From assembly GCA_027622665.1 (NCBI GenBank), contig JAQBYT010000028.1:1-54410 (forward strand): 54,410 bases of DNA, given 5' to 3'. Position 1 is the stretch's first letter. Every line of letters starts with the position of its first letter. This document shows positions 9,314 to 41,456 of the stretch, piece after piece. Position numbers and translations under genes: made by a program. Origin of the DNA: Verrucomicrobiota bacterium (GTDB taxonomy: Bacteria > Verrucomicrobiota > Verrucomicrobiia > Opitutales > Seribacteraceae). The notes beneath the pieces are model-generated. The model was not told the origin of the DNA and did not search any database. It saw only the letters and a program-made list of their open reading frames with translations.

Positions 9314-9489
9314 TCGAACGAAGTTTTCGAGAGCCGTTTTCGAACTTTCCCGTTTATGCGAAAATGTCATCTGATCAGTCGGAGGCAACACAGTGCATTT
9401 TCTTAGCCTTGGTTATTTAATTGAAGGACTTGCTTTAAGTCTTAATCGGATACTTGACACTAGAATGTTTTTTTGCGTATCGGTTGTAT

Positions 9490-12400: not shown

Positions 12401-12876
12401 CCTCGGATTTTGATTTGTTTACCTCTGAAGATTTAAATGTCACTGTTGAATCTGCGGTAACCGAGGCTAGGAGTTTCGCTTTGGATGAAGGGAAGTCGTT
12501 GGTAAAAGCGAACCCCGGAAACTTTGGTCTATACTCAGCTTCTGATTTGAACGCCTCTTTAAATCAAGCATCCGAAACTGCTCATGCTTCGGCTTTGATC
12601 TTGGGAAAAGGCATAGGAATAGAGTTAGTTCTTTCGAACCCTGTATCTTTCGGATTAAAGCAAGTCTTGGGGGAAGTCGGTGCCACGCCGCATACCCTCA
12701 ACTGGTACTACCAACCCGATTGGGGCTGGCTCTGGACGAACAAACAAACCTTCCCTTATGTCTACCGCACCGGATCGGCAGGCAAAACTCCTGGCTGGCT
12801 CTACTTCAAGGAAGGCTCTTCGGATCCAATAGAGTACTACGAATACGGTTCGGAGAAGTGGGTGACGCTCGAGTAA
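9490..12876 (+). CDS. Large secreted S8 (subtilisin-like) serine peptidase, multidomain
   Basis: Signal peptide from ATG 9490, propeptide, catalytic VAVFDSG / HGTQVAG / GTSFSAP, oxyanion AAAGN, DDDNNGYIDDINGWDF loop; then an InlB-B-repeat-like domain, DTDGDGL motif, tandem repeats and an aromatic C-terminal domain. Confidence 0.92.
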   Translation: MRLHSLIFSLFFLCFVNVRFVEAEHVPNEIIVRYHDGTNQSEKNATAVKFKLNFKKAFKLTNAVLYNVDAKVSLNDLQVEIEKLKSVKYVSFNRVYRKQSVDPFFATQWYLDNTGQSIRWFSGTSGIDIGWLDALDLYQKKETSFVAVFDSGFAKDHSELIGRNAYRNGESAGIAGFDDDNNGYIDDINGWDFIDNDNDPYDFKGHGTQVAGIIAAVKDGKGIQGITDDTFIYPLRVLDRDGRGNTADIVEALEYVYQNPGVRIINISLGGGSFDPLLAEQFKMFEKDDKVLIVAAAGNGGPDGKGDNNDWFPYYPSTYNSSSIISVASIDQKGNLSSFSNYGSSTVDIAAPGESIRVATVERELKFTQQADGNGWMEQFFWSQSSKSWKRTYYGITPWMESPRSYTNHSTVQPSFLDLSNMKDPRLKLSLDFSLLNGGKTYLSVTANLSDYKYLNTFSYSNTGGTGVFEYDISEYAGDDSVWIKFSFYPNSTSEHFDIGPIKVYDVDTNFWGSAYYTYNEGTSFSAPIVSGVAALIMSHRPDLLASDIKKILMDSVKPLTSLNGKVKSGGMVRADKALELANTYLTRSSMTFNAAPETEITDNGEVKQIDPAEWNTSGEKQVMGRITGAGHYFDGDRISIEAIPEQGFLFTGWTQPGTDWTSDSATYAFTSGAIDYTVTANFGPDHNDTDGDGLTHYWEAYFGTDPNNPHSDSDSLNDLEEWQVYWQAKQLEPTTDDSVRIAKLEEILGKNSHTLGLAEGKSLVTSNPSNYQLFTARDLNASIKLASDTVHAAALIEGKEIGINTVKAKPSDFDLFTSEDLNTSVESAVTVARGSALEEGKSLVTKNPSGFDLYTTSDLNASIKLASDTVHAAALIEGRNSGIETVMTKPSDFDLFTLEDLNVTVESAVTEARSSALNEGKSLVKANPGNFGLYSASDLNASLHQASETAHASALIEGRNSGIETVMATPSDFDLFTSEDLNVTVESAVTEARSFALDEGKSLVKANPGNFGLYSASDLNASLNQASETAHASALILGKGIGIELVLSNPVSFGLKQVLGEVGATPHTLNWYYQPDWGWLWTNKQTFPYVYRTGSAGKTPGWLYFKEGSSDPIEYYEYGSEKWVTLE
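11761..12657 (+). repeat. In-frame 240-nt (80-aa) tandem repeat, about 3.7 copies
   Basis: Units start at 11761, 12001, 12241, 12481; 12121-12360 vs 12361-12600 differ at 9 of 240 nt by manual count. Confidence 0.95.
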
Positions 12877-12880
12877 GGCA

Positions 12881-13579
12881 TTACTCTTCCACGAATTTGC
12901 CGTCGAGCATGGGAAGGCGGCGATCGCAGCGTTTTGCGAGCTCGGGATTGTGGGTGACTAAGATGACGGCGGGGCCGTCCTCTCGGGCGAATTTGAGAAG
13001 GAGGTCAAATACGCGATCGGAATTGGCGGCGTCGAGGTTGCCAGTGGGTTCGTCGGCCAAGATGAGGTCGGGAGAGTTGGCGAGTGCTCGGGCGATGGCT
13101 ACCCGTTGTTGCTCGCCGCCGGAGAGCTTGTTGACGAAGCGGTCGGCCTTATCGGCGAGGCCAAGATGGTCAAGAAACTTGTCGGCTCGGGCGAGAGCTT
13201 CTACGGCCGGTTTGCCTGCCTTGCGGAGGGGCAAGGCGACGTTTTCTCGTGCGGTGAATTCCTTAATTAGGAAGTGAAACTGAAAGACGAAACCAATGCT
13301 TTCGTTGCGGAGGGCGGTACGGGTGGGATCGTCGGCTTTAGTCATGGGCTTGCCGCGGAGGTATATTTCACCTGAGTCGGGCTGGTCAAGCAAGCCTAGG
13401 AGGTAGAGCATGGTGCTCTTGCCGCAGCCGGAAGGACCGACGATGGCGGTTACCTCCCCTGCCCTTGCCTCAAAGGATACGCCCCGAAGGGCTAACACCC
13501 TACCCTCGCCTTCCCCGAAGGAATGGCTCAGGTTTTCCACGCGAAGAATCGGCGTGTCGCCATGGACTTTATCGTTCAC
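12881..13579 (-). CDS. ABC transporter ATP-binding protein, LolD/MacB-NBD type
   Basis: GPSGCGKS, GFVFQFHFL, LSGGEQQRVAIARAL, ADEPTGNLD, VTH. Confidence 0.9.
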   Translation of the reverse strand: MNDKVHGDTPILRVENLSHSFGEGEGRVLALRGVSFEARAGEVTAIVGPSGCGKSTMLYLLGLLDQPDSGEIYLRGKPMTKADDPTRTALRNESIGFVFQFHFLIKEFTARENVALPLRKAGKPAVEALARADKFLDHLGLADKADRFVNKLSGGEQQRVAIARALANSPDLILADEPTGNLDAANSDRVFDLLLKFAREDGPAVILVTHNPELAKRCDRRLPMLDGKFVEE

Positions 13580-14823
13580 AAGGTTTCGCGGATGATTTTG
13601 GCTGGTTCTATGCGGGCTGCTCGACGGGCTGGTATCCAGCTGGCTATCCCCACGACGACGATGGCGATGGCGACGGCCCAGAGATAATGGGATATGTCCC
13701 AGTTTACCACGAAGCTATCGGTGGAGAATACTCCTCGTATGCGTAGGGGTATGCGTGAGATACCGAAGGTGGCGGCAGCGGCGAGGAGGCAGCCCAGGAC
13801 TATGCCCAAAGCAAGCACGAGAGCTCCTTGCCAGAGGAATATGCGGGAGACGTCTCCTGGAGTGAAACCCATGGAACGCAGGATGGCCACGTCGCGTGTC
13901 TTCTCGATGACCATGATGGCGAAGACGTTGAACATGCCCAGACCGGACAAGAGGATAATGGTGGAAACGGTGATGGCGGAGGAGACTCGGAGGGCTTTGA
14001 ATACGTCGAGCCACACTTTTTCCCGTTCCTGCCAACTGACCACGCGGTGCGCGAAAGTCTCCTGCATCTGGGCGGCCACGGCAGGCGCGTCTTCGGGTTC
14101 GCGAATCCCCACTTGAAAGACTGAGCCTCCGTGCGGATTGCGTAGAAAGGAGCGGGCGGTGGATAGATCGAGGTAGATGCGACTTTTGTCGATTTGACTG
14201 ACGCCTGTTTCGAATATGCCCGCTACGCGAAGGTGGAGCGACTCGTGGGAACCGGCTAGAATGACGCGATCACCGGGTTCCAGCCGAAGGCGTTCGGCGA
14301 TGCGGTTGCCCACAAGGATGCCCAGCCGGTCGTCCCGGAAGTCCTTTATTCCGCCCTGAATGACCTGATCTTCCAAATCCGATACGGCGATATGGTCACT
14401 TGCCCTTATGCCGTGTATGCGAACGGAGTGAGAGCGTGAACCCGTGTCGAGGACGCCGGCTCCCTCGAGAATTTCCGAAACGCCAGTGACTCCAGTGAAC
14501 TCCGCTGTCGCCTTTCGGAGTTCTTCGGGGTACTCGATGCCCTCGACGTAGCGGGCGCCTTCACGAGAGCGGAAAACAAAGCGCACCCGACCATCGTCGG
14601 AGACCTTGGTCACAGTACCGTCTACGTCTTGAAAGCGATCGGATACTCGAATGGCGCCATTCGTACCGAGAATTGTGCGAATGAAGAAGGTCTCGAAACC
14701 GGAAGTCTGGGCTTGAGTAACGATGAAGAAAGCTATTCCGAACACGATACCGAGCAAGCTCATCCCCATAGCCCGTTTTCGGGCCATCACGTATCGCAGG
14801 GCGACTTGAAGCGACAGGATCAC
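13576..14823 (-). CDS. ABC transporter permease, LolC/E-FtsX-MacB type
   Basis: TM1, large periplasmic domain, then three TMs with EKTRDVAILRSMG and PARRAARIEP. Confidence 0.88.
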   Translation of the reverse strand: MILSLQVALRYVMARKRAMGMSLLGIVFGIAFFIVTQAQTSGFETFFIRTILGTNGAIRVSDRFQDVDGTVTKVSDDGRVRFVFRSREGARYVEGIEYPEELRKATAEFTGVTGVSEILEGAGVLDTGSRSHSVRIHGIRASDHIAVSDLEDQVIQGGIKDFRDDRLGILVGNRIAERLRLEPGDRVILAGSHESLHLRVAGIFETGVSQIDKSRIYLDLSTARSFLRNPHGGSVFQVGIREPEDAPAVAAQMQETFAHRVVSWQEREKVWLDVFKALRVSSAITVSTIILLSGLGMFNVFAIMVIEKTRDVAILRSMGFTPGDVSRIFLWQGALVLALGIVLGCLLAAAATFGISRIPLRIRGVFSTDSFVVNWDISHYLWAVAIAIVVVGIASWIPARRAARIEPAKIIRETL

Positions 14824-15941
14824 TTGCCACCGACGGGGACGGGTTTGACTTTCTGGCCGTCGCGAAAGAGGTGTGGGGTTTCCACGATTACCTGTTCACC
14901 TGCCTCCAGTCCATCGAGAATCTCGGCGGTGAGCAGGTTCCGAGCCCCTACCTTGACCTCACGTGCTTCGGCTACCCCGTTTATTACGACAAACACGGCG
15001 GAACCCATGAGTGCCTTGCGAGGTACGACGAGAGCATTTTTTCGTACGGACTTGATTATTTCGGCCCTCCCCGAACTTCCGGGTGTAAAACGTTCGTTTC
15101 CACTCTCGAGTTCGACGTATAACTTTCGACGTCCGGAGGCCGAGTCTACAGTGGGGGACAAGCGGGTGACGTTTCCCTCGAAGATTTGAGCTCCTTGGGA
15201 TAATAGCGTGACCGCGACTTCCTGTCCCTCTCGAACTCCGGCAAAGTCTTCTTCGTTTAAAGTCACCACAATCAGGCGATCGTTGGAGACTACTTGACCG
15301 AGATGGGCACTGGGGGAAATCATGTCGCCGGGTGCAACAAAAGAAAGGGTCATGAGTCCGGGAATGGGGCTTCGGATTTTCGTTTTTTTCAGGTTGGCCA
15401 GTAACCGTGCTTCCTGAATCCGAAAAGTTTTGGATTGTTCATCATTTGTAATCTTTTCTTGGGTCAACTGAGTTTCCAGCCGTTTGACCAGACTTTTCTT
15501 ATTCTCTAGGTCTGACAATGGCAATTTGCCTTGTTCTGCTAAGGCATTCCACGCTTGCATTTCGCGTTTTTCCGTTTCCAGTTGCATGGCGATTGCCGAA
15601 CCTGCTGCGATACGTTTCTCTTGGTGCTCACGGGCGACGTACAGTTGCTTCAATGATCGCTCGTCCTCGGTGGCGTCGAGGGTGAGCAAGGTTGAATTCT
15701 CTTCCACGGCAATGGGTTTCCCGTTGGGCAGCATGATTGTGTTGGTCACGATTCCCGAAACACTTGAACGCAGATCGTGGGTTCGTTCCGCAAGTACAAG
15801 CACATTTCCCGGAACGCCATCACGAACCGTTCCTATCACGACGGGCTTCACGATTACCTCGGGGATCGCACTTACGATCAACCACCAACAAAGAATAGAT
15901 AATGCCCCCAAGGGCAGAGCAACCTTAATCAATAGCTTCAT
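14820..15941 (-). CDS. Efflux periplasmic adaptor (MFP, MacA/HlyD-like)
   Basis: N-terminal TM, lipoyl halves flanking a coiled hairpin (IRSPIPG), ALVVPRKAL, GLEAGEQVI. ATG 15941 preferred. Confidence 0.85.
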   Translation of the reverse strand: MKLLIKVALPLGALSILCWWLIVSAIPEVIVKPVVIGTVRDGVPGNVLVLAERTHDLRSSVSGIVTNTIMLPNGKPIAVEENSTLLTLDATEDERSLKQLYVAREHQEKRIAAGSAIAMQLETEKREMQAWNALAEQGKLPLSDLENKKSLVKRLETQLTQEKITNDEQSKTFRIQEARLLANLKKTKIRSPIPGLMTLSFVAPGDMISPSAHLGQVVSNDRLIVVTLNEEDFAGVREGQEVAVTLLSQGAQIFEGNVTRLSPTVDSASGRRKLYVELESGNERFTPGSSGRAEIIKSVRKNALVVPRKALMGSAVFVVINGVAEAREVKVGARNLLTAEILDGLEAGEQVIVETPHLFRDGQKVKPVPVGGK

Positions 15942-16017
15942 GGAGTATGAACAGGGAACCAGTCCCGGAAAAAAGACCATTTAAGCCGCGATTCTTCAAT
16001 TTGTCAAAGACAGGTTA

Positions 16018-17358
16018 CTAATGAGTTTCTTCAATGTGCAGGTTGTACTGCGCTCGTACGTTTAGGTAGTCGACCACGGTTCGAATAAGTGAAAGGCGGC
16101 TTTGATCAAGAGAAAGTCGAGATGAGAAAAATGCATCCGGGGTGATCCTGTTTCGATCAAACTCAATGCGACTCTTTTCAAAGCGGTCCTCGGACGCACC
16201 TAACAGTTGGCGACTGGAATCGATTGTCTGGGCACGCGTTACCAGGTATTCGCGCAAACTCCGGGCTTCCAATTGGAGGTGCCTAGTTTCCCTTTCCAGT
16301 TGAATTTCGTATCGTCTCTTACGAGCCATCGCTGCTCGCTTTTCACCTCGACTTTGCGATGCATCGAAAAGGGCCCAGTTTGCTTCAAGACCGATAGTGA
16401 AATTGTTGCGATCCACTGAAGATCGACTATCAGCAAGGTCGATCTTGTCCTGATGAAAACCTCCAATCAAGTTCAGTTTTGGTCGCAAGGCGGACTTGGC
16501 TATGATAATTCGTTGGTTTTCGGCCTCTATGGCACTATCGATGTTTTTAAGTGCAGTCGAAGTTGTGTTGCTAGCGAGAATGGGAAGATTGAGGCCAAAT
16601 CGATGTGTTTGGGCAAAGTCGCGAAAATCGTCCGAAATAGTAAGGTCGAGGCCACCCACACTTCCCGAATCCTCCATGAAGATTCGGGTGTTTCGGGCAA
16701 GTTTTCGTTTCATTTCCGCAAAGTTTATTCTTTGTTGGAGCACAATAATTTTTGCCTCCGAAACAGATAATTCAGTAACGAGACCAAGGCGCATACGTTC
16801 TTTCATTCCATCGAGATTGGATTCAGCCAGTTCCATGCTTCTACGGGTCAACTCGATTTCGTAGGTGGATAGAACGAGTCCGAGGTAATCTACACGGATA
16901 CGATCTAGGAAGTTTCTTCTGAAATCTGAAAAAGAAGCAGAACTTGATGATTCGGACAATTCCGCCACTCTACTTCCCGCCTGCAAGGCTCCCCAGTGGT
17001 AGAGTGGTTTGCGAACGTATGCAGATGCCAAATAGCGATATTGCTGGTAGTAGTTGGCATTTGGACGATCCTCGTAAAGTGAATGACCATTTAAGCCAAC
17101 GGAGAGGCGGAATCCTCGCTTGGAGTCGGCTACCATACGATTGGCGGTAGCCTCGTTTACCTTTTCACGTTCCTGAAGCAGAATAGGGGCATTCGCTTCA
17201 ACGCTATTCAGGACGGCACTTAGAGAAGGAAAAAATGATTCAGCTGTTTCAGTATAAGATGTATGTGTGCCGTTTTTATCTTCTGCCTGTCCATGGGAGT
17301 CTAGAGACGATGACATCGAAACAACCGACCACGACAGGATGTAAAGGAAGCGGAACAT
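16018..17358 (-). CDS. TolC-family outer membrane efflux protein
   Basis: Signal peptide, two OEP-like halves (KPLYHWG; RPKLNL...WALFD), long amphipathic helices; directly upstream of the MFP gene. Confidence 0.8.
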   Translation of the reverse strand: MFRFLYILSWSVVSMSSSLDSHGQAEDKNGTHTSYTETAESFFPSLSAVLNSVEANAPILLQEREKVNEATANRMVADSKRGFRLSVGLNGHSLYEDRPNANYYQQYRYLASAYVRKPLYHWGALQAGSRVAELSESSSSASFSDFRRNFLDRIRVDYLGLVLSTYEIELTRRSMELAESNLDGMKERMRLGLVTELSVSEAKIIVLQQRINFAEMKRKLARNTRIFMEDSGSVGGLDLTISDDFRDFAQTHRFGLNLPILASNTTSTALKNIDSAIEAENQRIIIAKSALRPKLNLIGGFHQDKIDLADSRSSVDRNNFTIGLEANWALFDASQSRGEKRAAMARKRRYEIQLERETRHLQLEARSLREYLVTRAQTIDSSRQLLGASEDRFEKSRIEFDRNRITPDAFFSSRLSLDQSRLSLIRTVVDYLNVRAQYNLHIEETH

Positions 17359-17461: not shown

Positions 17462-18139
17462 TCAGTCGCCTTTAAAGGCGTCTTTGTACATGTCCTTCAA
17501 TTGGGCACCCGTCCACTGGTCTTTTTGCGCGGAGGCTTCATCTCGGAAGGTAGCGACCTGTTTCTCTGTGACCTCCGAAGCGTCGTGCCCCCAAGCCTTG
17601 CGGGCATAAGAGACTACGCTGGCGATCTCTCGATCATTCAAAGGTTGTGGCGGCATGTTAACCGTTGCCACAGTGCCATACTTTTTACCAAGGACTTCGA
17701 TTTCGCCTTTCAATCCCCTCAATACGATTTTTGTAATGATTCCGGGATCAGTCGTGGCCCACTTAGAACCGACGAGGGGGGGGAACAAGTCTTTGCCCAT
17801 TCCATCGGGGTTGTGGCATGAGGCGCATCGACTGTTAAATAATTTTTTGCCTCCGGCCAACTTACGCTTCATTCGTTTGGCTTCCTGTTCTTCGGGAGTC
17901 AATGAAATCTCCGGGGCGGGCGGATGAACCCGAAAGTGATTAGTGCTGTGAGCTAGTTGGATTGCGCAGAAAAAAACGAGACATCCGAAGAGAAAAACGA
18001 AAACAAGAGGTGCCTGCAGAAAGTGCTTTGTCGGAGGGTGTTTTTCTCGGCCGAGCTCGGCATGGACATTGACGAGTTCCTTATCACTCATCTCCGAGTT
18101 AGAGTCTTTTTTTACAACCTTTTTCTTCGGAGTGCTCAT
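17462..18139 (-). CDS. Membrane-anchored monoheme cytochrome c
   Basis: One TM, CASCH, FPPLVGS, distal NMPP; ATG 18139 overlaps the upstream stop (ATGA). Confidence 0.88.
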   Translation of the reverse strand: MSTPKKKVVKKDSNSEMSDKELVNVHAELGREKHPPTKHFLQAPLVFVFLFGCLVFFCAIQLAHSTNHFRVHPPAPEISLTPEEQEAKRMKRKLAGGKKLFNSRCASCHNPDGMGKDLFPPLVGSKWATTDPGIITKIVLRGLKGEIEVLGKKYGTVATVNMPPQPLNDREIASVVSYARKAWGHDASEVTEKQVATFRDEASAQKDQWTGAQLKDMYKDAFKGD

Positions 18140-19281
18140 TTGGAGTCTCCCTTCAATTCTGCGACCGTCCACATTTGCATCGGTGCCCTACCCGCGACAG
18201 TTGATCTAACCGTTGCTACTTCTGCTGAAGAAACTGACGATGCAGAGTTTCCCCAATCGTTGCGGACATAGGTCAACACATCCGCAATCTGTTGATCCGT
18301 AAGGGCCCCCGGGGGAATGCCGGGGGGAGGCATGGCTGAAGTGTATACCGTTCCCTTTACTTTTACCGGGCCCATTAAGCCGAACATGGCTATCTTGATT
18401 AAAGTTGGCTTGTCTCCCAATACCCATTCGGATCCCGCAAGCGGGGGGAACTGTCCGGGCAAGCCGAGACCTGTCGATTGGTGGCAGGTAAAGCACATAC
18501 CACCGCCAGGGGCAGCCTTCATGTAGATTTCCTTACCGGAAGCTATTTGGTCTGAGAGCCACTTCGGGAGTGCGGCGGCACTTGCGTTAACATCGGAATG
18601 GTATTCACCATGATCATCTTCCTTGACTTCGACAAATGCCATTTCAGGCAATTCGTAGTTTTGTCCGAGCGATTGCAGGTAAGAGACGATCTTTTGAGCC
18701 CGAAGAGTAGGAAATATATGCCGTGAGGTTTCACTCTCAAGATGACCGGAGTGATCGCTGTGATCATCATGGACTTCGATGGTACCGCTAGTTGCTTCAT
18801 CTTTAACTTCAAAGAGAAAAGGACTCGGCGGGCATATGGACCCGGGGACGGTTGCTTGCGGATCGAACAGATGACGATGAAGCCACTCGTCTGTAAACCC
18901 CCTAAGTCCGACATTGGCCAGATCAGGCCCGATACGAGTGTTTCCCAGGAGGACATTGTCCTGCAGGATGTAATCTCTAGCCACGGAAGGCCTTTTACCC
19001 CACTTTCGCTCGACGTCGAAGCCGGATTCGGTGAGGCGAACTTGCTGAGTATGGCAAGACATGCACCCGAGGGATATGTATTCCTCTGCACCCTGCTTGG
19101 CTATGCCGGGGAGATCCTTAGGAAACAAATCGGCACCAGCGGGTATGGAACCGTCTTCCTCGAGAACCTCTGCCGTCGGTTCGAGATCCCCGAATTGACT
19201 ACGGGCTCCAACAATGAACGCCAGCCAAGAGACGAACAATGTGAGAAGAGTTCCGAACGAGAAGGTGAAAAGGTTGTTCAT
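18136..19281 (-). CDS. CcoO/FixO-like cytochrome fused to a second cytochrome c domain (diheme)
   Basis: N-terminal TM, GCMSCHTQQVR, RIGPDLANVG, WLHRHLFDP (CcoO signature); His/acidic linker; second domain CFTCH...FPPLAGS...AMPP. Confidence 0.88.
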   Translation of the reverse strand: MNNLFTFSFGTLLTLFVSWLAFIVGARSQFGDLEPTAEVLEEDGSIPAGADLFPKDLPGIAKQGAEEYISLGCMSCHTQQVRLTESGFDVERKWGKRPSVARDYILQDNVLLGNTRIGPDLANVGLRGFTDEWLHRHLFDPQATVPGSICPPSPFLFEVKDEATSGTIEVHDDHSDHSGHLESETSRHIFPTLRAQKIVSYLQSLGQNYELPEMAFVEVKEDDHGEYHSDVNASAAALPKWLSDQIASGKEIYMKAAPGGGMCFTCHQSTGLGLPGQFPPLAGSEWVLGDKPTLIKIAMFGLMGPVKVKGTVYTSAMPPPGIPPGALTDQQIADVLTYVRNDWGNSASSVSSAEVATVRSTVAGRAPMQMWTVAELKGDSK

Positions 19282-20690
19282 GATTTGCCCTCCTTCACGG
19301 AATCACCGGAAGGTTTGCTGCAGCAGAAGTTGATCGGACCACAGATTGATCGCCAAACATTGACGACGAAGACCAGTTGGGAAACACCCAGAAGGATGAA
19401 GGCGAACTCGGATATCAGGAAGTAGGGTTTTACTGCAGTGACTACGCTTTCCGCCCACGCCAATGAGGGTTGCTGGGCGAGGACGCCGTGTGTAAGACCT
19501 CCGATAAGGTAGGCTAGCAAAAGGGCCATTACTCCAAAGGCCGAAGTCCAGAAGTGAAAGGATGCGGCTTTCTCGCTCGTTTTGTTTCCGGTGATCCGAG
19601 GAAGCATGTAGTAGACCACACCGAATATGATCATGCTGAAGAATCCGTATACACGCTGATTGAAGTGAAATTCGTTGATAATGGAGAACTGAGTGATCTT
19701 GGCTACGGCGGGGAGTGAGAAAATAATCCCGATATAACTGGAAATAGTATATGAGATCGTACCGAATATAACGAACCGCAGCGGAAGGTTGTTCCAAACT
19801 TTACCAATGTCCTTGAATGCAGTGGCGTGAAAATTCGTAGACGCGACGGCGATCGGAAACACCATGGCGATGCTCATTACTGTTCCAATGGCAGGTATCC
19901 ACATTGGGAATGGACCGCCCTCAAGATGATGAAGACCTGACCATGGAGCCAAGAAAGCGATGCACCAGAAGCCGAAAATGGCCAGATAGTACTTTTCTAT
20001 CGGTCGCCCAAGTATCTTGGGGATAAGGTAGTAGGCAGAGCCTAGAGCTATTGGTGTAATCCATAGCCAAATAACGTTTTGCGAGTACCACATCGATACT
20101 ACGCTTTGCACTGTTCCGCGACCGGGATTTAACTCCAAACCTTGCCACGCTACCAGAAAAAGAGCGGGGAACCAAAGAAACGAAGCCAATACGAACCATT
20201 GTGTGACATAGGTCTCCCGCTTAACGCGAGATCGATGCAAGACGAAGATCATGGCAGCGATTACGAAATAGGACACCAACAGCGCCGGCCAAACGACAAC
20301 GGGCATTTCCATCAAGTCGGAAGAGGTCATGTGCCCGGCAAAGATTCCACCGAGTCCGAGTGTAATAGCTATGTTCCAAACCGCTCCTGCTACGATGAGA
20401 TAAAAGCGCCCTCGCACTTCAGCTTGTCCTAGACGAGCCAGTAACCAAATGCTTACGGCAAAAACTGCATTGGATGCCCAACCGTAAACGAATGCGTTGG
20501 TTTGGGCTGCCTTTACTTTTCCATAAGTTAGAAATTCGCAAGAACCCAAGAAAGTCGGGTCGGTGGACTTGGCTGCAACGACATAGGCTAAGGCAGCAGC
20601 CACCAGAAGCCATAGTCCTGCGGAAGCAAGGAAGAAGGATACGACTAATCGGGCGGACTTATCAATCAAGCTTTCGTTCGACTCGCTCAT
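19278..20690 (-). CDS. CcoN/FixN-like heme-copper oxidase subunit I homologue with degenerate metal ligands
   Basis: About 12 TMs colinear with CcoN (LTYG..., YVTQWF, YYLIPK..GRP, HHL, LRF, YYMLPR, HFW) but several ligands substituted; see findings. Confidence 0.88.
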   Translation of the reverse strand: MSESNESLIDKSARLVVSFFLASAGLWLLVAAALAYVVAAKSTDPTFLGSCEFLTYGKVKAAQTNAFVYGWASNAVFAVSIWLLARLGQAEVRGRFYLIVAGAVWNIAITLGLGGIFAGHMTSSDLMEMPVVVWPALLVSYFVIAAMIFVLHRSRVKRETYVTQWFVLASFLWFPALFLVAWQGLELNPGRGTVQSVVSMWYSQNVIWLWITPIALGSAYYLIPKILGRPIEKYYLAIFGFWCIAFLAPWSGLHHLEGGPFPMWIPAIGTVMSIAMVFPIAVASTNFHATAFKDIGKVWNNLPLRFVIFGTISYTISSYIGIIFSLPAVAKITQFSIINEFHFNQRVYGFFSMIIFGVVYYMLPRITGNKTSEKAASFHFWTSAFGVMALLLAYLIGGLTHGVLAQQPSLAWAESVVTAVKPYFLISEFAFILLGVSQLVFVVNVWRSICGPINFCCSKPSGDSVKEGKS

Positions 20691-21025
20691 TTTTCGTCCC
20701 CTTCCGTTCCGGTTTCATTGGACTCATCCGAGTCGGATGCTTTGTCTGAGGAGTACTCGTTCACTGTGCCCTGCATCACGCTTTCCAAGCTTGAATTCAT
20801 TTCGGTATGGGCCCTGTCGATTAATTCTGTGAAATTACCTTCTTCAGATCGATAGGTAGCCACCTTCTTCATTCTTTCGTTGATAACTTTATTGTCAACG
20901 GGTGCCAGTTCCTCGGTGGGTAGGCACTGTCGTAAAATAAAGAAAGCAAAAACTAGAACAGTCGCGACTATCAGCGAGAAAAAGACGCTGCAGCCATCGG
21001 CGCGCTGAAGTGTCGAGTTACTCAT
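20687..21025 (-). CDS. Single-TM hypothetical protein between actF and the ccoN-like gene
   Basis: Overlaps both neighbours; one hydrophobic helix followed by a charged helical region. Confidence 0.75.
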   Translation of the reverse strand: MSNSTLQRADGCSVFFSLIVATVLVFAFFILRQCLPTEELAPVDNKVINERMKKVATYRSEEGNFTELIDRAHTEMNSSLESVMQGTVNEYSSDKASDSDESNETGTEGDEK

Positions 21026-22328
21026 GGTAGTTGATTGAAGCCTTTATACGTGGATCTCGAACCGGTATTATTTCAGCATCTGATTCGCGATAGCTTTTGA
21101 GAACCGCCCAAATGCATAGACCGCCGACGCCGACCAAGGCAAAGAGTCCCCATATGAGCTGAGTCCCTAAGACGAATCGAATGTCATAACCAACGGGAGA
21201 TTCAGGATTGGGAATACGACCGGGAATGATGTTCCAATAGAGATCGAGCAAGTGGAAGCAAAGAATCCAACCAACTATCTTTAGGGTCTTGTGGGGTTCC
21301 ACCTTGTTTTTATACCAGAGCAAAGCGAGGAAGGGAACGAGGAAGTGACCGAATATCAATCCCATGGAGACCCAGAACCAACCCGTTCGCTCACCGGTGT
21401 TCGGATTGATTTCTCGAATCACGTACCAAAAAGTTTCTTCTGGGATGTTGGCGTAATAAATAAGAAAGTACTGGGAAAAACTAATGTAGGCCCAAAATAC
21501 GGTGAATGCCAAGGATAGGCAGGCAAGATCGTATTGATGTGCCTTGAAATTATAAAAGCCCCTCAAGTCCGTCCGAGTTGCGAGGACGAAGCAAACGATT
21601 ATGGCAACGGCCAAACCTGCCCGAATGGATGCAGCAAAGAACCAGACGCCAAACATGGTAGAAAACCAGTGGTATTCGAGACTCATGAACCAGTCGAAAG
21701 CACCAAAGGTAAGGGCAATGGCACAAGCAGGTAACCCCGCGGCAGCAATGTTGTGACCCCATTGGGTCCATTTGGAATCCCCGTCACGGTCTTGGGTGAA
21801 AGATACCTTGCGCATCCAATACGCCAAAGAGCAGAATATGGCGAAATAGCCAATGGTTCGAACGCTGAAGGAGAACACGTTGAGGTAACCACTTTTTTTC
21901 AGAAGCAATACGTCGTGCCCGACTTTGTGTACTTCACCTGCGACAGGGACGTCGCTGGCGGGGTTGACCCAGTTCCATAATACTCCTGCTTGATCGCCGC
22001 CAAACCAAACTACGAGAAGAAGAGGAAGGAAGCAGACTCCTAACCAAGGAAACGCCGCCAAGCAGTGTTCCATCTGACGTCTTACGACGGGTGTCCACTG
22101 GGAGTTGAATACTCGAAAAAGCATGATCAGCATGAGCATACCAATGGCGATGCTAAGCCAGAAAGCAGTACCCCACAACCATCCTAGAAATGGGTTCTTG
22201 TCGCCATTTGCGAGACCCATGAAAAGACCGATTAATCCGCCTCCGAGTCCAATGGCGGCAGCACCAAGGCACTTGGTGGATAAATCAGTCTTTTGACCAA
22301 GTATTCCAGTTGCTTCGTCGGCACTCAT
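21018..22328 (-). CDS. actF: Alternative complex III subunit ActF
   Basis: Polytopic; FDWFMSLEYHWFSTMFG, FWAYISFSQYFLIYYANIPEETFWY, DLYW motifs; operon position. Confidence 0.9.
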   Translation of the reverse strand: MSADEATGILGQKTDLSTKCLGAAAIGLGGGLIGLFMGLANGDKNPFLGWLWGTAFWLSIAIGMLMLIMLFRVFNSQWTPVVRRQMEHCLAAFPWLGVCFLPLLLVVWFGGDQAGVLWNWVNPASDVPVAGEVHKVGHDVLLLKKSGYLNVFSFSVRTIGYFAIFCSLAYWMRKVSFTQDRDGDSKWTQWGHNIAAAGLPACAIALTFGAFDWFMSLEYHWFSTMFGVWFFAASIRAGLAVAIIVCFVLATRTDLRGFYNFKAHQYDLACLSLAFTVFWAYISFSQYFLIYYANIPEETFWYVIREINPNTGERTGWFWVSMGLIFGHFLVPFLALLWYKNKVEPHKTLKIVGWILCFHLLDLYWNIIPGRIPNPESPVGYDIRFVLGTQLIWGLFALVGVGGLCIWAVLKSYRESDAEIIPVRDPRIKASINYHE

Positions 22329-22984
22329 TCGACTACCTCCAGTTTGCGCGCATATCCAACATAGGATTGCAAAGCTCTAACATAGAGAACAATTGCCCAG
22401 CGCTCCCTGGGGTTCAGTTTATCGGCAAGTCCTAGCATGATTTTAGATGCGGAGCCTTTTGAGATCGCATTGAAAATTTGACCGTCGGGCCATGGTTGTA
22501 AAGCTTCCAGGTATGTGGCATTGACACTGGGGTCGGATAGGTTTTTTGGCAATAATCCGAATTGAGCAGTGACGCCTCGACCGTTTCCATATCGTCCATG
22601 GCAGTTGCTGCAATGAATGTCGTACCCCTCTTTACCTTGCCTAATCAAAGCCATGTCCATTCCGATTTGTGCGGGAATTCGCGCGGTGAAGTTGCCGTCG
22701 GAATCCTTGCCTGTTCGAAGAACCTCAGAGCCAATATCGATGTCAGAGGAAAATACGTTTTCTAGGTCGATTGCGTTCCCTCGTACAACGGAACCAACAG
22801 GTGGCAGTCGGTCGGATCGACGATCCGGAAAAAGATTGTTCTCTGATTGTTCCAAAAACTTCAGTTGCCGATCCATATCGGGAAACACTTCTATAGGAGG
22901 GTTCTTCGATGTGTCTCCGCGGAATCCCAGGATCGAGATAACGGTAATAATGGCCAAAGCATAAATCCAAAGGAAGTATCTCAT
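22325..22984 (-). CDS. actE: Alternative complex III monoheme cytochrome ActE
   Basis: PIEVFPDMDRQ, R..PVGSVVRG, CSNCHG, RWAIVLYVRALQ. ATG 22984 sits 1 nt after the actD stop. Confidence 0.88.
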   Translation of the reverse strand: MRYFLWIYALAIITVISILGFRGDTSKNPPIEVFPDMDRQLKFLEQSENNLFPDRRSDRLPPVGSVVRGNAIDLENVFSSDIDIGSEVLRTGKDSDGNFTARIPAQIGMDMALIRQGKEGYDIHCSNCHGRYGNGRGVTAQFGLLPKNLSDPSVNATYLEALQPWPDGQIFNAISKGSASKIMLGLADKLNPRERWAIVLYVRALQSYVGYARKLEVVE

Positions 22985-22985
22985 A

Positions 22986-23558
22986 TCAAAACTCCTCCGG
23001 TTCGCGTATGAGACCAACGGACTTACCGCCAATATCCTTCAGGAAATCTGCGGTTTCGTCATCCTCGAATTTTGGATCTTCCACCTCGATGACAATCATG
23101 AACTTGTCATCTCCGGTACGACCGAACTTTGGGTGCTCGAAAACGGGATGATTATGTCTTGGCAGTCGGTTAAGAAAAAACATGCCGAACAAGGTTCCGA
23201 ATGCGGCAAACAAAATAGTGAGCTCGTAAAAAACGGGAAAAGGGAAAACCGGACTAAAAAACGGTTTTCCGCTGGCGATGAGGGGGTAGTCAAACGCATT
23301 CATGTACCATACGATAAACATGCCAGTTAAAAAACCTGTGACTCCGCCCGCCAAAGTGAAGCGTGGAACCTTGGAGCGTACGGGAAAGCCCTTGTCATCC
23401 AAACCGTACATTTGTACGTCTAGCCCGTGTATGGGAATCGGTGTGTAACATTCCCAACTGGTATAGCCGGCATCCCGTACCTTAGCGGCCGCGATATAGA
23501 TCTCACTAGCGGAATTAAAAGCCGCAGTCAGCCCGTATTTTGTGCCGTTATTCGCCAT
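22986..23558 (-). CDS. actD: Alternative complex III subunit ActD (DUF3341)
   Basis: YTPIPIHGLD, DYPL..SGKP, ELTILFAA; two TMs; operon position. Confidence 0.9.
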   Translation of the reverse strand: MANNGTKYGLTAAFNSASEIYIAAAKVRDAGYTSWECYTPIPIHGLDVQMYGLDDKGFPVRSKVPRFTLAGGVTGFLTGMFIVWYMNAFDYPLIASGKPFFSPVFPFPVFYELTILFAAFGTLFGMFFLNRLPRHNHPVFEHPKFGRTGDDKFMIVIEVEDPKFEDDETADFLKDIGGKSVGLIREPEEF

Positions 23559-23586
23559 TTTTGCGTAAAAAGAGTGATTGACCAGA

Positions 23587-25008
23587 TCAATGTTTCCCCG
23601 CGTGTGGATCTGCCATGGGGGTTACGGACTTCACTTCAGCCAAGGGCATGAGTGGAAGAAAACGAAGGAACAGAAGGAATAGCACCGAGAAAAACCCGAA
23701 AGTACCAAAGAATGTAAACAAATCGACGACTGTGGGTGAATAGTAACCCCAACTGGAGGGAAGGAAATCACGAGACAAGGTGGTGTTGGCTATAACAAAG
23801 CGTTCGAACCACATTCCTACATTGACGAATATGGAAATGACCCAAACTAGAGGTGTGTTTTCTCGTATTGCCTTGAACCAGAACAATTGCGGGCAGATGA
23901 CGTTGCAAGAAACCATGATCCAATAGGCCCACCAGTAGTTGCCGAAAGCACGATTGATAAAGGCAAATCCTTCATAGGAGTTAGCGCCGTACCATGCGAT
24001 GAAGAACTCCATGGAATAGGCGTAACCGACCAAGCTACCCGTAGCCAAGGTAATCTTGCACATGTTGTCTATGTGCTTTTGGTTGATAAGGTCGTGGAGA
24101 CCAAATACGGCGCGGACGGGCAGGAGAAGTGTCATAACCATTCCGAAACCCGAGAATATAGCACCCGCAACGAAATAAGGCGGGAAAATGGTGGTGTGCC
24201 AACCAGGTAGGTTGGCTATGGCGAAGTCAAACGACACGATGGTATGAACCGAAAGTACGAGTGGTGTGGAAAGCCCTGCCAAGAGCAGGTAGGCCATCTC
24301 GAAGTTTCGCCAGTGGGTGTTTGAATTGTTCCAACCCATGGAAAGGAATCCATAGAAGTACTTTCGCCACGCCTTTTTGGCTCGATCCCGCAAAACAGCG
24401 AGATCGGGTATCATGCCCATGTACCAAAAAAGAACGGACACAGTAAAGTAGGTCGACACGGCAAAAACATCCCATTCCAAAGGGCTCTTGAATTGAGGCC
24501 AAATGTTGTTTGCGTTGGGAATGGGAAACAGCCACCATGCGAACCATACCCGACCGAGGTGAAACAGTGGGAAAATACCGGCGCACATAACGGCAAACAC
24601 GGTCATGGCTTCTGATCCGCGATTAATAGACGTTCTCCACTTTTGCTTGAGGAGGCACAGAATTGCTGAAATCAGCGTGCCGGCATGACCTATGCCGATC
24701 CAGAAAACAAAGTTTACAATAGCCCAACCCCAGTTGACAGGATTGTTGTTCCCCCATTCGCCTACTCCCGATGACACAAGAATGAGAAGCCCCATTCCGG
24801 TGAAACTGGCTATGCCCAGTGCAAAAATGAAGCACCACCACCACCAATTTGGCGTCTTCGCCTCAACTATTCCGCAGATCTTATCTGTAATCCAATGAAG
24901 ACTCCGCTTGTTCAGAACAAGTGGTTGTTCATCCAATTTGGCTGGATTGATTTTTTTAAGAATCTCTGATGATTGCTCAACCACATCTGTAGTTGCCGAA
25001 CTCATCAA
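23587..25008 (-). CDS. actC: Alternative complex III quinol-oxidising subunit ActC (NrfD/PsrC family)
   Basis: [76 protein letters not shown]. Confidence 0.95.
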
Positions 25009-28000
25009 TGGTGAGCACTCCCATTAGTCTCAGTAGGATTATCGCCATGATTGTCGTGACCATGATCTTCGTGAGAAGGGTGAGCCCGCTCATGATATTC
25101 GCGTGAGGAATAAGGTTTGTCGGTTGCATCCGGCATGTCCGGGTTCGGGTTTCGGATGCGAGCCATGAAGGTAGTGCGGGGTCGCGTATCGAGGTATCCC
25201 AGAACCGAGTAATCTCGCGGATTGGTTTTCAATTTTGAAACTTTGCTGTCGGGGTCGGAAATATCGCCGAATTCTATGGCGTCCGCCGGGCAAACCTGTT
25301 GGCAAGCGGTTTTAATTGTCCCGTCAGGAACCTTAAGTTTATCATGAATATCTAATTCCGCGCCATTTTTGCCCGTGGAAAACTTCTCACTTCGTTGAGC
25401 CTTAACTTTGGTACTAATTTTAGCTTCTTGAATTCGTTGTACGCAGTAAGTACATTTTTCCATTACGCCTCTCATCCTTACGGAGACGTCGGGATTTTTC
25501 ACAAGGGTCGGCAGCTTGGGGTTCTCATCTCCTAAAGGACCAAGATAGAGTTCATCCGTTTTTCTTTTATTCCAATCAAAGAAATTGAAGCGACGTACCT
25601 TGTATGGGCAGTTGTTGGCGCAATAACGGGTGCCAACGCAACGATTGTAGGCCATTACATTCAGTCCCTCTTCGTCATGAACCGTAGCAGCTACGGGACA
25701 GACCTGTTCGCAGGGAGCGTTTTCACAGTGCATGCATGCCACACCTTGGAAATTGACTTGCACGTCGGAAGGGATTTCGGCTCCTTCACGTTCGGTGGAA
25801 CTGAAGTAGCGGTCTAGGCGAATCCAGTGCATTTCACGACCGCGTAGCACTTGATCCTTACCTACGACGGGAATGTTGTTTTCGCTTTGACAGGCAACGA
25901 CACACGCATTGCAACCAGTGCAAAGGTTCAAGTCTATGGACATTCCCCATTGATGGAGTCCGGTGTGATCCGGGTGTTCGTAGGCTGAGTGTCCACGCGG
26001 TGTGGTTTGGGACTTGTGTTTAAGGCCCTCGTTGTCTTCCCTGCCATATGTGAGAGGGGAGTGCGATTCCACGCCCATTTCGGAGGCAAAATCCTCCTTG
26101 CCCGCGTACTCGTCGGCATTTGCCTCTCGAACGATCGCACGGCCTTCCATCGACCAGTGTTCTTGCACATTGGCGAGGGTTTGCCTACTTTTCGTAGTGG
26201 AAAGTGTTACTCCTGAAGCAATGCGGGAAGAATCAGAACCGAGAAGAGGGTATCCATCGTAGCCAGTGCCCTCACCTACTCTTCCGACTGTTCTTCTACC
26301 CATTCCGAGGGTGGCAATTAAGGTGTAGTCCGCCAATCCCGGTTGGACGTGAAGTGGTCCTTCGATGGAGGAACCGCCTGCCAAGGTAAGCTTCACCACG
26401 GGAGCATCTTGTTTACCAAGATCGAATACGGCGGTGTCGGGTGCGACCTCGCCATTTTTGTTCAGCATGGTCGGCTTGGGAAGTAGGTTAAGACCTTTGT
26501 GCTTCTTCTCTAATTCCGCAGCTAGAACCGGACTGACGAGGATCGCATTGTCCCAAGTCAGCTTGGATATCGGATCGGGGCATTCCTGCATCCAGCCATT
26601 GTTTGCGTAGCGTCCGTCCCATGCGTGAAAGTCAGGAACTAAAAGTACTTCAAGTGAATCGGCTGTGGGCGCTTTGGGTAGGTCGTCCTTGAGATCGGCC
26701 AGTTTATCAAAATCATACACTGGCGAGACAAAGGAAACTTTGCGAGGAAGTAGACCGATCCGAAGAAAGTCATCAAAAGAACTTCCATCAGACAGTTCGT
26801 TGAAGGTTTCCTGAACCAATGAATGCGAAGACTTTTCTTCACCCGCTACAATTGAAAGGACATCAAGTTCGGAAAAGGTTTCGAAGAGCGGTTCGATCAA
26901 TGGTTGCACTGGCAAGTGCGCGGAAAGATCCCAAGTCGTCCCGTCGCCCCAGCATTCCAAATAGTGGGATGCGCCAATATGCAAATTGGAGAATTCGGAA
27001 GTTTCATCGATGGACGAACCAAACCTGATGGTAAGATCGACCTTTTGGGCCAAGGCCGACCAATCTAACTTTGCCGGACTTGTAAAAGTAGGGTTGCCGC
27101 CTAAGAATATTAAGGTGCCGATTTCTCCCGCCTCGATGGCTTCGACTAAATCAGATATATTCGAAGAGTCGTTACTTGAAAGTTCTGCGTATTGAACAGT
27201 TTCCCCGTTAGCACCTAGCGCTTGATTGATCGCGTAAGTAAGTACATGCGCTTCCTCGGGCAAATGATTACCTGCGAGCACCAAGGATTGGCCTTTATGA
27301 GCGACTAAATCGATTGCAGTTTCTTTGCACCACGAGGAGTCCAAGCCTGCCTTGGCAGCGCGTTCTTTCAAAAGCTCTATCACGGAGTCACTCGATTTTT
27401 CCGTAAGTGAAAGAACTTCGGCAGCGACGGCACTGGCGAATGCAACCATTTGAGAAGAGGAAAGGCGCAGTCTGTGGTCGGCGGCGGCACCGGTGAGGGT
27501 GAGGTCGGACTCCACAGAGTAGAGGCGATTCATTTTCTTGGAGTCCGCGGCACTCAAGACCTTTCGACCTTTTGTGAACTCACGGGTGAGCCGGAGGTGG
27601 TCCGGTTCGCGCATTCCCAGAAAGTCGCAATCAATGGAGAGTATGCGTTTAGCCTTTTTCAATCTGGCCAAGGAACGCAAGGGACCTGTCGACAATGCAT
27701 TGCCCAAAGCTTTTGCTGCAGTCGATGAGTCGATGGGATCGTATTCGGACCAGATTACGCCCTTGTCGCGTAACTTCGCAGCAAGCTTTGCTCGAGCTGG
27801 GGAACTGGATGATTCCGCAAGAACGGCTACCTTGCCTTTGGCTAATCTGTCGGGAGAGAGAAAACTTTCAAGTGTCTTTACGGCATCACTCTTTAGGGTC
27901 TTTTCCCAAGCAAATGTTTTTTTGTCACCAGTGCCCGAAGTGCTGGACTCATAACTACCTTGGGCGCGGTCGGGATCATAGAGACCTAGTACGGTAGCTT

Positions 28001-28412
28001 GCGAATGGACGTCGGTACCACCACCCGCTGGCAAATAACTTGGGTTGCCCTCTATCTTTGTAGGTCTTGACTGGTGACTCTCGACAATCAGAGGGACATG
28101 TCCAAAGGAAGTGGGAAGCGAAGTGGAATAGTAGTTGGGGATTCCGGGAATGACTTCCTCTGGTGATTTGCCATAGGGCATAATTGCCTGCTCCGGCCGT
28201 CGACAGCCTGTCATTCCGAATCCGGCTAGGCCAAAAGAGGCGGCCATTACCTTCATGAAATTGCGTCGCTGGACACCATCAATCAGGGAAGCTCCTTCAG
28301 GGAATTCTCGTTCAACCCAAGTGCGGAACGCCGGAGTTTCAGCCAGATCGTCCAAGCTTTTCCAATAGCGAGAGCCTGAAGGTCCCTTTCCGTTCGGATT
28401 TTTCATAGTCAT
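25005..28412 (-). CDS. actB: Alternative complex III subunit ActB (molybdopterin-fold domain + Fe-S domain)
   Basis: YWKSL start, twin-arginine RRNFMK...GC signal, RPTKIEGNP; Cys groups CTGCNAC...C, CMHC..PC..VC, CVGTRYC...C, CTYC...CQQVC. ATG 28412 overlaps the actA stop. Confidence 0.95.
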
Positions 28413-29149
28413 CGATGGCATCCGCTGCAACTGACAGGAGGATGTATGCCCCACTTCTCCTTGAGATTTAACCCTGCGTGGGCTTGAATCGCGACGGGGT
28501 CTTCACTATCAGTGAGAGTGGGCAACCACGAAAGGTCAGTGACTTTGTCCAAGGGGCGAAGGGCATCTTCTGGGTTGCGATGGCAATCCAAGCAAAATGC
28601 CATGCTCAAATGCTTGGCGTGAGAAACTTCTTTCATCTGGTCGATCCTGCCGTGGCATGCTACGCAACTTACGCCACGATTTACATGTATGGCGTGATTG
28701 AAGTAAGCATAGTCTGGCACTTTATGAATACGAGTCCAAGGTACTGCAGGACCTTGGCTAAGTATGCCGTCGTTATTTGCGTCTTCTCCTTTGTTTAAGA
28801 TACCGTCCTTGTTTTTGTCTTCCCCGTAATAACTCGCTCGAATTGGCCCTAAGGCAGGTGAGTCAGCCTTGATCGTCTTGTGGCAACTCATGCAAATATT
28901 GGCTGCGGGAACACCTGCATGGGCAGACTTGTCGACGCCATGATGGCAATATCGACAATCCAGTCCCAGTTCGCCTACGTGGAAACTGTGATCGTATGAT
29001 ACGGGCTGGGTGGGTTGATAGCCAACCCGCGTATACTTTGGAGTGGCGTAATAATTTATGCCCGCAGATACGCCGACTCCAATTAGCCCTAAGCCGACAA
29101 TGACCTTTAAAGGTATTGTATTAGTCCAGCGAGGAAAGATGTTGCTCAT
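28409..29149 (-). CDS. actA: Alternative complex III pentaheme cytochrome ActA
   Basis: N-terminal TM, QPVSYDH..H, five CxxCH (CRYCH, CMSCH, CVACH, CLDCH, CSGCH), PDYAYFNH..H. Confidence 0.95.
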   Translation of the reverse strand: MSNIFPRWTNTIPLKVIVGLGLIGVGVSAGINYYATPKYTRVGYQPTQPVSYDHSFHVGELGLDCRYCHHGVDKSAHAGVPAANICMSCHKTIKADSPALGPIRASYYGEDKNKDGILNKGEDANNDGILSQGPAVPWTRIHKVPDYAYFNHAIHVNRGVSCVACHGRIDQMKEVSHAKHLSMAFCLDCHRNPEDALRPLDKVTDLSWLPTLTDSEDPVAIQAHAGLNLKEKWGIHPPVSCSGCHR

Positions 29150-40388: not shown

Positions 40389-40470
40389 GAAAAGTCAAAG
40401 ACTGACTAATAAAGAGAAATAAATACAGGTTTTCAAGCTTATTGCCTAGTCAACAGCTCGCCGTATCGAC

Positions 40471-41382: not shown

Positions 41383-41456
41383 AGTAAAATTATCAATAGA
41401 GACAAAAGTTAATGGCAAGTTAAATGCACGAAAGCTTTTGAGCGAATCTTTGCAAG

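Follow-up and report, generated by a model that had tools for sequence, protein, structure and literature searches.

CcoO', a cytochrome c subunit encoded in a marine Opitutales genome, carries a cysteine (Cys150) at the position of the axial methionine of CcoO, and the comparisons given below indicate that this residue is a real, selected and convergent CcoO variant inside a pseudo-oxidase. The window, that is, the whole stretch of DNA analysed, comprises 54,410 nucleotides of contig JAQBYT010000028.1 (assembly GCA_027622665.1). The preferred reading, to which a probability of about 0.55 is given, is that the heme of CcoO' lies out of the electron path and is kept six-coordinate for fold and safety, probably as a His/Cys heme of low potential.

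The CcoO' fusion protein

The ccoO'-cytochrome c fusion is a 381-aa open reading frame on the reverse strand (18136..19281). It is made up of an N-terminal helix, a CcoO/FixO domain, acidic His-rich linkers and a C-terminal class I cytochrome c domain, and Pfam places FixO at residues 62-163 and cytochrome c at 247-341. The PF02433 (FixO) score of 66.7 bits is over the cut-off of 29.6; that of TIGR00781 (NCBIfam), 68.3 bits, is under the cut-off of 200.65. The first heme motif, C73-x-x-C76-H77 (C73-M-S-C76-H77), goes with Cys150, and the second, C263-x-x-C266-H267, with Met317. The sole Met of the heme-1 domain (residues 52-213) is Met74, inside the CxxCH, the next being Met214, and a reading of this domain for a partner Cys found none.

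The translation reads ...HLFDPQATVPGSICPPSPFLF, in which Cys150 is encoded by TGC at 18834-18832 (reverse strand, 18832..18834) in the codon context TCC ATA TGC CCG, S-x-M-P being turned into S-I-C-P. HMMER aligned VPGSICPPSPFLFE of CcoO' with VPESKMPSYPWLVE of P. stutzeri CcoO (3mk7_B) without a gap, and CcoO of P. aeruginosa (8smr_F) likewise aligned with the Cys150 region. The gapless alignment puts Cys150 in the column of the S-x-M-P methionine, which we take to be the axial heme ligand of CcoO, and bears out the sequence-only reading that Cys stands where this Met belongs. An AlphaFold model of residues 8-214 (pLDDT 73) found its best structural match, among 48,161 chains, in CcoO of R. 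capsulatus (6xkw_o; Z 10.7, rmsd 3.4, 144 residues aligned), the next-best chain having a Z of 7.3.

CcoO' thus shares with CcoO (FixO; 3MK7_B, 8SMR_F, 6XKW_o) the N-terminal helix, CxxCH, GPDL, the HLx[ND]P...SxXP loop in register, the fold and the position after ccoN. It differs in the axial Cys, in a partner CcoN without its sites, in a drifted Ca-site/interface motif and in the second cytochrome c fused to it in most of the family. Among the best 120 of 474 protein matches found, the CxxCH of heme 1 is intact in 120/120 and Met317 of the second heme is kept in 116/120, and conservation is similar in both heme domains (0.835 in domain 1 vs 0.872 in domain 2). The His-/Asp-rich linkers (residues 171-188 and 224-228; about 18580-18770 of the window, reverse strand) are poorly conserved, with a consensus identity of ~0.47, and model confidence is low there. 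Origin of the C-terminal heme domain as a copy of the next gene was considered and is not claimed, since the domain is only 34% identical to the cytochrome of that gene and 43-49% identical to four cytochrome domains elsewhere in the genome.

The surrounding gene cluster

The co-oriented cluster runs in the order actA-B-C-D-E-F, a 112-aa membrane protein, ccoN', ccoO' and a membrane-anchored monoheme cytochrome c, on the reverse strand throughout. Judged by domain content and gene order, an alternative complex III (ACIII) gene set actA-F is present in the window (21018..29149), consisting of the pentaheme actA (28409-29149), the Fe-S actB (25005-28454), the NrfD-like actC (23587-25008), actD (22986-23558), the monoheme actE (22325-23032) and actF (21018-22328), the last by position and length only, with no Pfam match. 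Apart from ActD, the subunit names lean on domain content and on the usual act gene order. The 112-aa single-helix protein between actF and ccoN' (20687..21025) belongs to no Pfam/NCBIfam family, and similar proteins in the ESM Atlas fall into unnamed Verrucomicrobiota clusters. Pseudo-ccoN lies at 19278..20690 and encodes 470 aa. The monoheme cytochrome c in the CcoP-like position (17462..18139) has a CxxCH and a distal Met-Pro, a motif type present in 65/72 cytochromes downstream of ccoO', and is likely the carrier to the A-family oxidase.

The present cluster resembles those of Opitutaceae and verrucomicrobial methanotrophs, in which, as set out in PMC8498564 and PMC6688271 (both citing Refojo et al. 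2010), the act genes are followed directly by ccoN, ccoO and a cytochrome c. Both papers regard the cbb3 of such clusters as a functional oxidase of high affinity; unlike that published picture, CcoN is ligand-less here and in 64/112 scorable loci, and the CcoO ligand is changeable.

Beyond the cytochrome c gene, a TolC-like efflux protein, an HlyD adaptor, an FtsX/MacB permease and an ABC ATPase are encoded on the reverse strand (12881-17358), and a TolC neighbour was seen again in the five loci of the family type that were checked. The window also encodes a 1140-aa subtilase whose C-terminal part contains a long run of imperfect repeats (9454-12876, forward strand), two tandem HDOD proteins (39468-41418, reverse strand) and an 1151-aa FliD-like protein (50912-54367, reverse strand).

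The partner pseudo-CcoN

When scored against P. aeruginosa CcoN and intact relatives, CcoN' has both heme b ligands replaced (Q63 and N344, both His lost) and is without one CuB His (Q204) and the cross-link Tyr (A248), H254, H255 and H342 being kept. Three of the six ligand His are lost, plus the Tyr, and CcoN' does not show the six His and Tyr of a cbb3 oxidase. Its dN/dS of about 0.06 to two genus relatives points to purifying selection.

In the marine clade with the fused CcoO', H255 and H342 are kept in 45/45 and H254 in 44/45; special conservation of these His was rejected as a candidate, their retention being unexceptional where 47.5% of all CcoN' columns are invariant. They may leave room for a residual metal site in this clade. 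At the positions that we take to be those of the proton channel and the Ca site, T212, Y220 and Y314 are kept, and Ser is changed to A237, Glu to D125 and the CcoO Thr to N114. Over the loci compared, decayed CcoN varies at the Ca and proton-channel positions, those of the proton channel being mostly lost in pseudo-CcoN, and the CcoO columns T114, M115, T117 and Y75 are fixed beside intact CcoN and variable beside decayed CcoN. CxxCH is present in every CcoO row of this comparison. CcoN' and CcoO' would be expected to bind each other, as judged from gene order and the known structure of cbb3.

Other oxidases and carriers

The genome, which is 93.5% complete, encodes a single further heme-copper oxidase, the intact caa3 of contig C60; a search of it for bd oxidase found none. 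Besides pseudo-CcoN, a strong full-length COX1 match is present in 15/16 genomes of the family, the other having split pieces, and a strong separate COX1 match was recorded in 5/5 non-family Cys genomes tested. An electron route from ACIII to caa3 is suggested by gene order and by analogy with the known cbb3 structure. Elsewhere in the genome (G000:C55:76038-77783, reverse strand), a 582-aa cytochrome b is fused to a two-CxxCH domain and is a possible second quinol oxidoreductase. In the Chthoniobacteraceae Cys lineage (locus L127, 1130-2920), ccoO' is followed by a diheme cytochrome, a monoheme cytochrome and an A-family oxidase, an arrangement that, by its gene content, is a parallel gain of His/Met-type carriers.

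Authenticity and selection of Cys150

Cys is present in all of the best 120 of 474 CcoO' protein matches (120/120) and in 32/32 other genomes of the family in which the locus was fetched (36 genomes scored). Of 17 loci in the order's other families, 16 carry Met and 1 carries Ala. The axial Cys is encoded by TGT and TGC in equal numbers (37:37) among the 74 CcoO-like loci recovered with a Cys-specific DNA pattern. The Cys150 codon is unchanged in contigs of 4/4 sequencing runs compared (2 DNA and 2 RNA, from seawater); these contigs show no indel in ccoO', and all differences lie outside the codon. The contigs of the two metatranscriptome runs are taken as confirmation of the codon sequence and not as evidence of transcription. 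To a genus relative, dN/dS is about 0.05 for both heme domains, from which ccoO' is judged to be under strong purifying selection.

The sequence-only reading had cautioned that TGC might reflect a compensating pair of indels, and had proposed a check of reads and orthologues for SICP; that check turned out in favour of Cys throughout, and the family-wide Cys, the use of both codons and the four indel-free runs dispose of the caution. An artefact of this type does exist elsewhere, namely in the metagenome contig L209 (740-2600), where a proteobacterial-type canonical ccoNO with many indels is locally frame-shifted into a false S-T-C-P. For Cys150, the probability of a sequence or assembly artefact, or of neutral decay of a dying gene, is close to negligible, given its fixation across the family, the two codons, the agreement of four independent runs and the strong purifying selection.

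Axial residue and state of CcoN

A set of 117 loci was assembled from 61 relatives and a 301-genome sample of the phylum, of which 112 had a scorable CcoN and 5 did not. Where CcoN is intact (six His and Tyr), the axial residue is Met in 48/48 loci, 2 of which belong to a different cbb3 type used as outgroup. The 64 loci with a degenerate CcoN have Cys in 30 (29 from the family, including the window, and 1 from another order), Met in 29, His in 2, and Lys, Ala and Arg in 1 each. The same column in the best 150 of 2918 FixO cluster representatives reads Met 132, Cys 6, Ala 4, Lys 3, His 2 and gap 3. CcoN-like genes with one or none of the six His were seen in L116, L117 and L118 (family f32 of the same class) and in L147 (Candidatus Methylacidiphilales).

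The Cys-specific DNA pattern, run over 185,579 species genomes, gave 76 matches, of which 74 are CcoO-like and 2 are not CcoO; these loci overlap the 117-locus set and the counts are not added together. A six-His CcoN accompanies 0/62 of the pattern loci with a full CcoN, the number of remaining His being three in 44, two in 1, one in 6 and none in 11. Beyond marine Opitutales, the pattern taxa are Chthoniobacteraceae/Spartobacteria, Chthoniobacterales and records labelled Methylacidiphilales; two records titled Aliarcobacter and Akkermansia muciniphila have a Methylacidiphilales-type sequence, and Candidatus Chordibacter forsetii and Candidatus Seribacter sulfatis are among the records sharing the motif. 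The gene order at these loci is ccoN'-ccoO'-cytochrome c, often followed by an A-family oxidase or with actF upstream. A second pattern run over metagenomes gave 16 matches, comprising 13 of the Chthoniobacteraceae type, 1 further Cys locus with degenerate CcoN, the indel artefact L209 and one chance match that is not CcoO. Both patterns are biased by fixed spacing and fixed flanks, so that proteobacterial and Bacteroidota canonical CcoO with Cys are only partly surveyed by them.

The sequence-only reading had matched the Cys heme to the altered CcoN. This stands insofar as Cys occurs only with a CcoN devoid of its O2 site. The link is, by these counts, one-way, since Met persists in 29/64 degenerate loci and the number of His left beside Cys ranges from 0 to 3; decay of CcoN permits the Met swap but does not require it. 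In two loci (L048 and L110) and four representatives (P0134, P0139, P0173 and P0246) with axial Ala or Arg, a His or Lys lies three to five residues off and may supply a shifted sixth ligand.

Origins of Cys and replacement bias

On trees of CcoN + CcoO with the trait columns removed, parsimony gives 5 changes to Cys. A single origin, with one Cys clade, was rejected by the AU test (p-AU 0.0006), one clade of the eight non-Opitutales Cys rows was not rejected (AU p=0.10), and in a mixture-model tree two Cys groups sit at an open fork; hence, two origins are the tested minimum and four to five are a reading of the tree. Genus g2 of the family, sister to the fused clade, has Cys, an unfused CcoO and a CcoN with zero His, which places the Cys before the fusion and makes it independent of the remaining CcoN His.

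A single base change turns the ATG codon into one for Leu, Ile, Val, Thr, Lys or Arg; a codon for Cys or His takes three. As a control, seven other columns that are Met in intact enzymes were followed after decay, and these turned into L/I/V/T/F in 131/194 events and into C/H/K in 3/194. The axial column of loci gathered independently of the Cys pattern changed to Cys 2, His 1, Lys 1, Ala 1 and Arg 1, so that ligand-type replacements make up 4/6 vs 3/194 control events (p=8e-6) and L/I/V/T/F 0/6 vs 131/194 (p=0.0015), p-values that overstate the difference since the events are rough clade counts and the control events, taken as uniform clades on a FastTree tree, are not independent. With the pattern loci added, ligand-type replacements are 7/9 and L/I/V/T/F 0/9. 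The column thus takes Cys, His and Lys, with no Leu, Ile, Val, Thr or Phe seen, and this replacement pattern is the main argument that Cys150 is a ligand. The substitutions look like those of an axial site that has to remain closed but whose potential may drop freely.

Covariation at +3/+4 was also considered as support and was dropped. In the first set, 15/15 Cys rows had no aromatic residue at +3 and had Pro at +4, against 191/209 and 58/209 Met rows, respectively. Fresh data broke both rules, with Tyr at +3 in 5/74 pattern loci and Arg or Lys at +4 in some metagenome matches.

Comparison with known His/Cys hemes

Besides SoxA and TsdA, His/Cys c-hemes occur in DsrJ, PsbV2 and NaxLS. According to PMC9562282, the potentials of His/Cys c-hemes lie between -180 and -470 mV, as compared to +200 to +380 mV for His/Met hemes, and Cys ligation in type-2 thiolate hemes is labile; PMC6879331 gives -186 and -181 mV for heme 1 of TsdA. 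CcoO' resembles TsdA and SoxA in its predicted ligand set and low potential, the fused form having one putative His/Cys and one His/Met heme. It differs from them in its CcoO fold, its membrane anchor, the apparent lack of a conserved Arg pocket, the putative respiratory-scaffold context free of sox genes and the repeated origin from a His/Met site. CcoO' is not a member of the SoxA/TsdA family.

SoxZ was found in 0/76 genomes of the family (26 of them at least 90% complete), an absence that bears on SoxA only, as TsdA needs no Sox genes. The SoxA/TsdA families PF21342 and TIGR04484, searched in the 93.5% complete genome, gave no match, and PF21342 is absent from the Pfam matches of CcoO'. Arg119 is described as invariant in TsdA/SoxA in PMC4423706; the CcoO column table, which compares columns and not pocket geometry, has no Arg conserved only in Cys lineages. 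The proposal of a catalytic or sulfur-chemistry role for the Cys150 heme, made from the sequence alone, is not supported by these findings and the fold, nor by the soil and freshwater lineages that made the same swap and the others that took His or Lys. In the literature consulted, largely open-access texts, no report of a Cys-ligated CcoO or of a ligand-less verrucomicrobial CcoN was found.

Proposed role of the CcoO' heme

The thiolate is a stronger ligand for ferric iron than Met. In cbb3, electrons pass from cytochrome c to the CcoO heme, heme b and b3-CuB, as outlined in PMC7876108, and the ancestor of the present system would have run from ACIII to cytochrome c and then along this order. 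CcoO' would be the CcoO subunit of a cbb3 oxidase that was once linked to ACIII and has been retained as a membrane scaffold without catalytic function. On loss of heme b from CcoN, the CcoO heme would become a dead end, and it is proposed that, with no heme b to feed, it no longer needs a high potential. The heme would still be required for the folding of the domain, which would explain why the CxxCH is never lost, and a closed heme would be safer, as an open site would bind O2, NO or peroxide. The thiolate of Cys150 would bind the iron to give a low-spin ferric heme with His/Cys ligation and a potential of roughly -200 to -450 mV, and would lock it in an oxidised, stable and unreactive state, parked off the electron path. 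The scaffold would hold cytochromes between ACIII and the A-family oxidase, electrons passing from ACIII through His/Met cytochromes (the fused C-terminal domain and the product of the next gene) to the separately encoded caa3. His/Cys ligation and a low potential are suggested by the alignment and the substitution pattern. Such parking is not required, since 29/64 degenerate loci keep Met, and the occurrence of Ala and Arg at the axial site counts against the parked-ligand reading, as does the reported ability of uphill hemes to pass electrons on (PMC4807273).

It is possible, though unlikely, that the dead cbb3 was instead rebuilt several times into a regulatory or catalytic module of the ACIII chain, either as a His/Cys redox/NO switch on the coupling of ACIII to caa3 or, in the abundant marine fused clade, as a feed to a remodelled b3/two-His site for non-O2 chemistry. 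A redox or gas switch, in which a type-2 heme-thiolate Cys leaves on reduction or on binding of NO or CO and alters the coupling of ACIII to the oxidase through the scaffold, is by itself doubtful. The labile Cys would agree with the behaviour described for type-2 thiolate hemes (PMC9562282), and Cys is the commonest replacement (5/9 clades; 6/15 non-Met residues among the best 150 of 2918 representatives) and is fixed family-wide; however, there is no output domain, His, Lys and Met serve the same site elsewhere, the proton-channel positions of pseudo-CcoN are mostly lost, and three of the five Cys clades came from the Cys-specific pattern. Rather doubtful, too, is a heme that still passes electrons from ACIII to cytochromes on the soluble side, whether by an uphill step or with its potential raised by the pocket. 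ACIII chains do contain low-potential hemes, domain 1 is as conserved as domain 2 at a dN/dS of about 0.05, and Met persists in 29 degenerate loci. Such a relay is hard to square with repeated moves to potential-lowering ligands, with ligand swaps never being found where a heme b acceptor exists (Met 48/48) and with the other His/Met carriers at hand.

A Cys150 that is not bound to iron, but fills the pocket or forms a disulfide or adduct while the heme is open or has another ligand, is improbable. Ala and Arg variants imply that a non-ligand is tolerated in this column, the Cys side chain is shorter than that of Met, and the accommodating changes proposed at +3/+4 failed in some lineages; against this, the domain has no partner Cys, no L/I/V/T/F replacements were seen, a His or Lys lies only a few residues away in several of the Ala/Arg variants, and three-base changes to Cys were made repeatedly. 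Quite improbable is a new enzyme acting on sulfur compounds, NO or peroxide, whether with a catalytic His/Cys heme as in TsdA/SoxA or with a low-potential donor to a remodelled heme b3/two-His site. The fused marine clade does have a TsdA-like heme content (one His/Cys, one His/Met), and the b3 His and two Cu His of its CcoN are almost invariant. This is opposed by the absence of SoxZ from 76/76 family genomes and of SoxA and the SoxA/TsdA domain from the genome searched, by a fold that is that of CcoO (Z 10.7) and not of SoxA/TsdA, and by the lack, in the column table, of an Arg specific to Cys lineages. Heme b, the bridge to b3, is without both ligands. In the sister genus g2, Cys goes together with an unfused CcoO and a CcoN of zero His, and the swap was also made in soil and freshwater lineages whose CcoN retains at most one His.

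Significance

The loci constitute a repeated natural ligand-swap on one heme site, with Met where the oxidase works and Cys, His or Lys only after its death. At the level of sequence, they are evidence that the verrucomicrobial pseudo-cbb3 can do without its CcoO heme as a high-potential relay, and this limits what the module may do. They also offer a small expressible domain on which a new class of His/Cys c-heme, unconnected with sulfur or anammox metabolism, could be tested. As this genome has caa3 and no bd was found in it, 'cbb3 oxidase' calls in this common marine Opitutales family are not to be equated with low-oxygen respiration. In marine Opitutales, and likewise in several other Verrucomicrobia, what was once an electron relay has probably become a structural heme of low potential.
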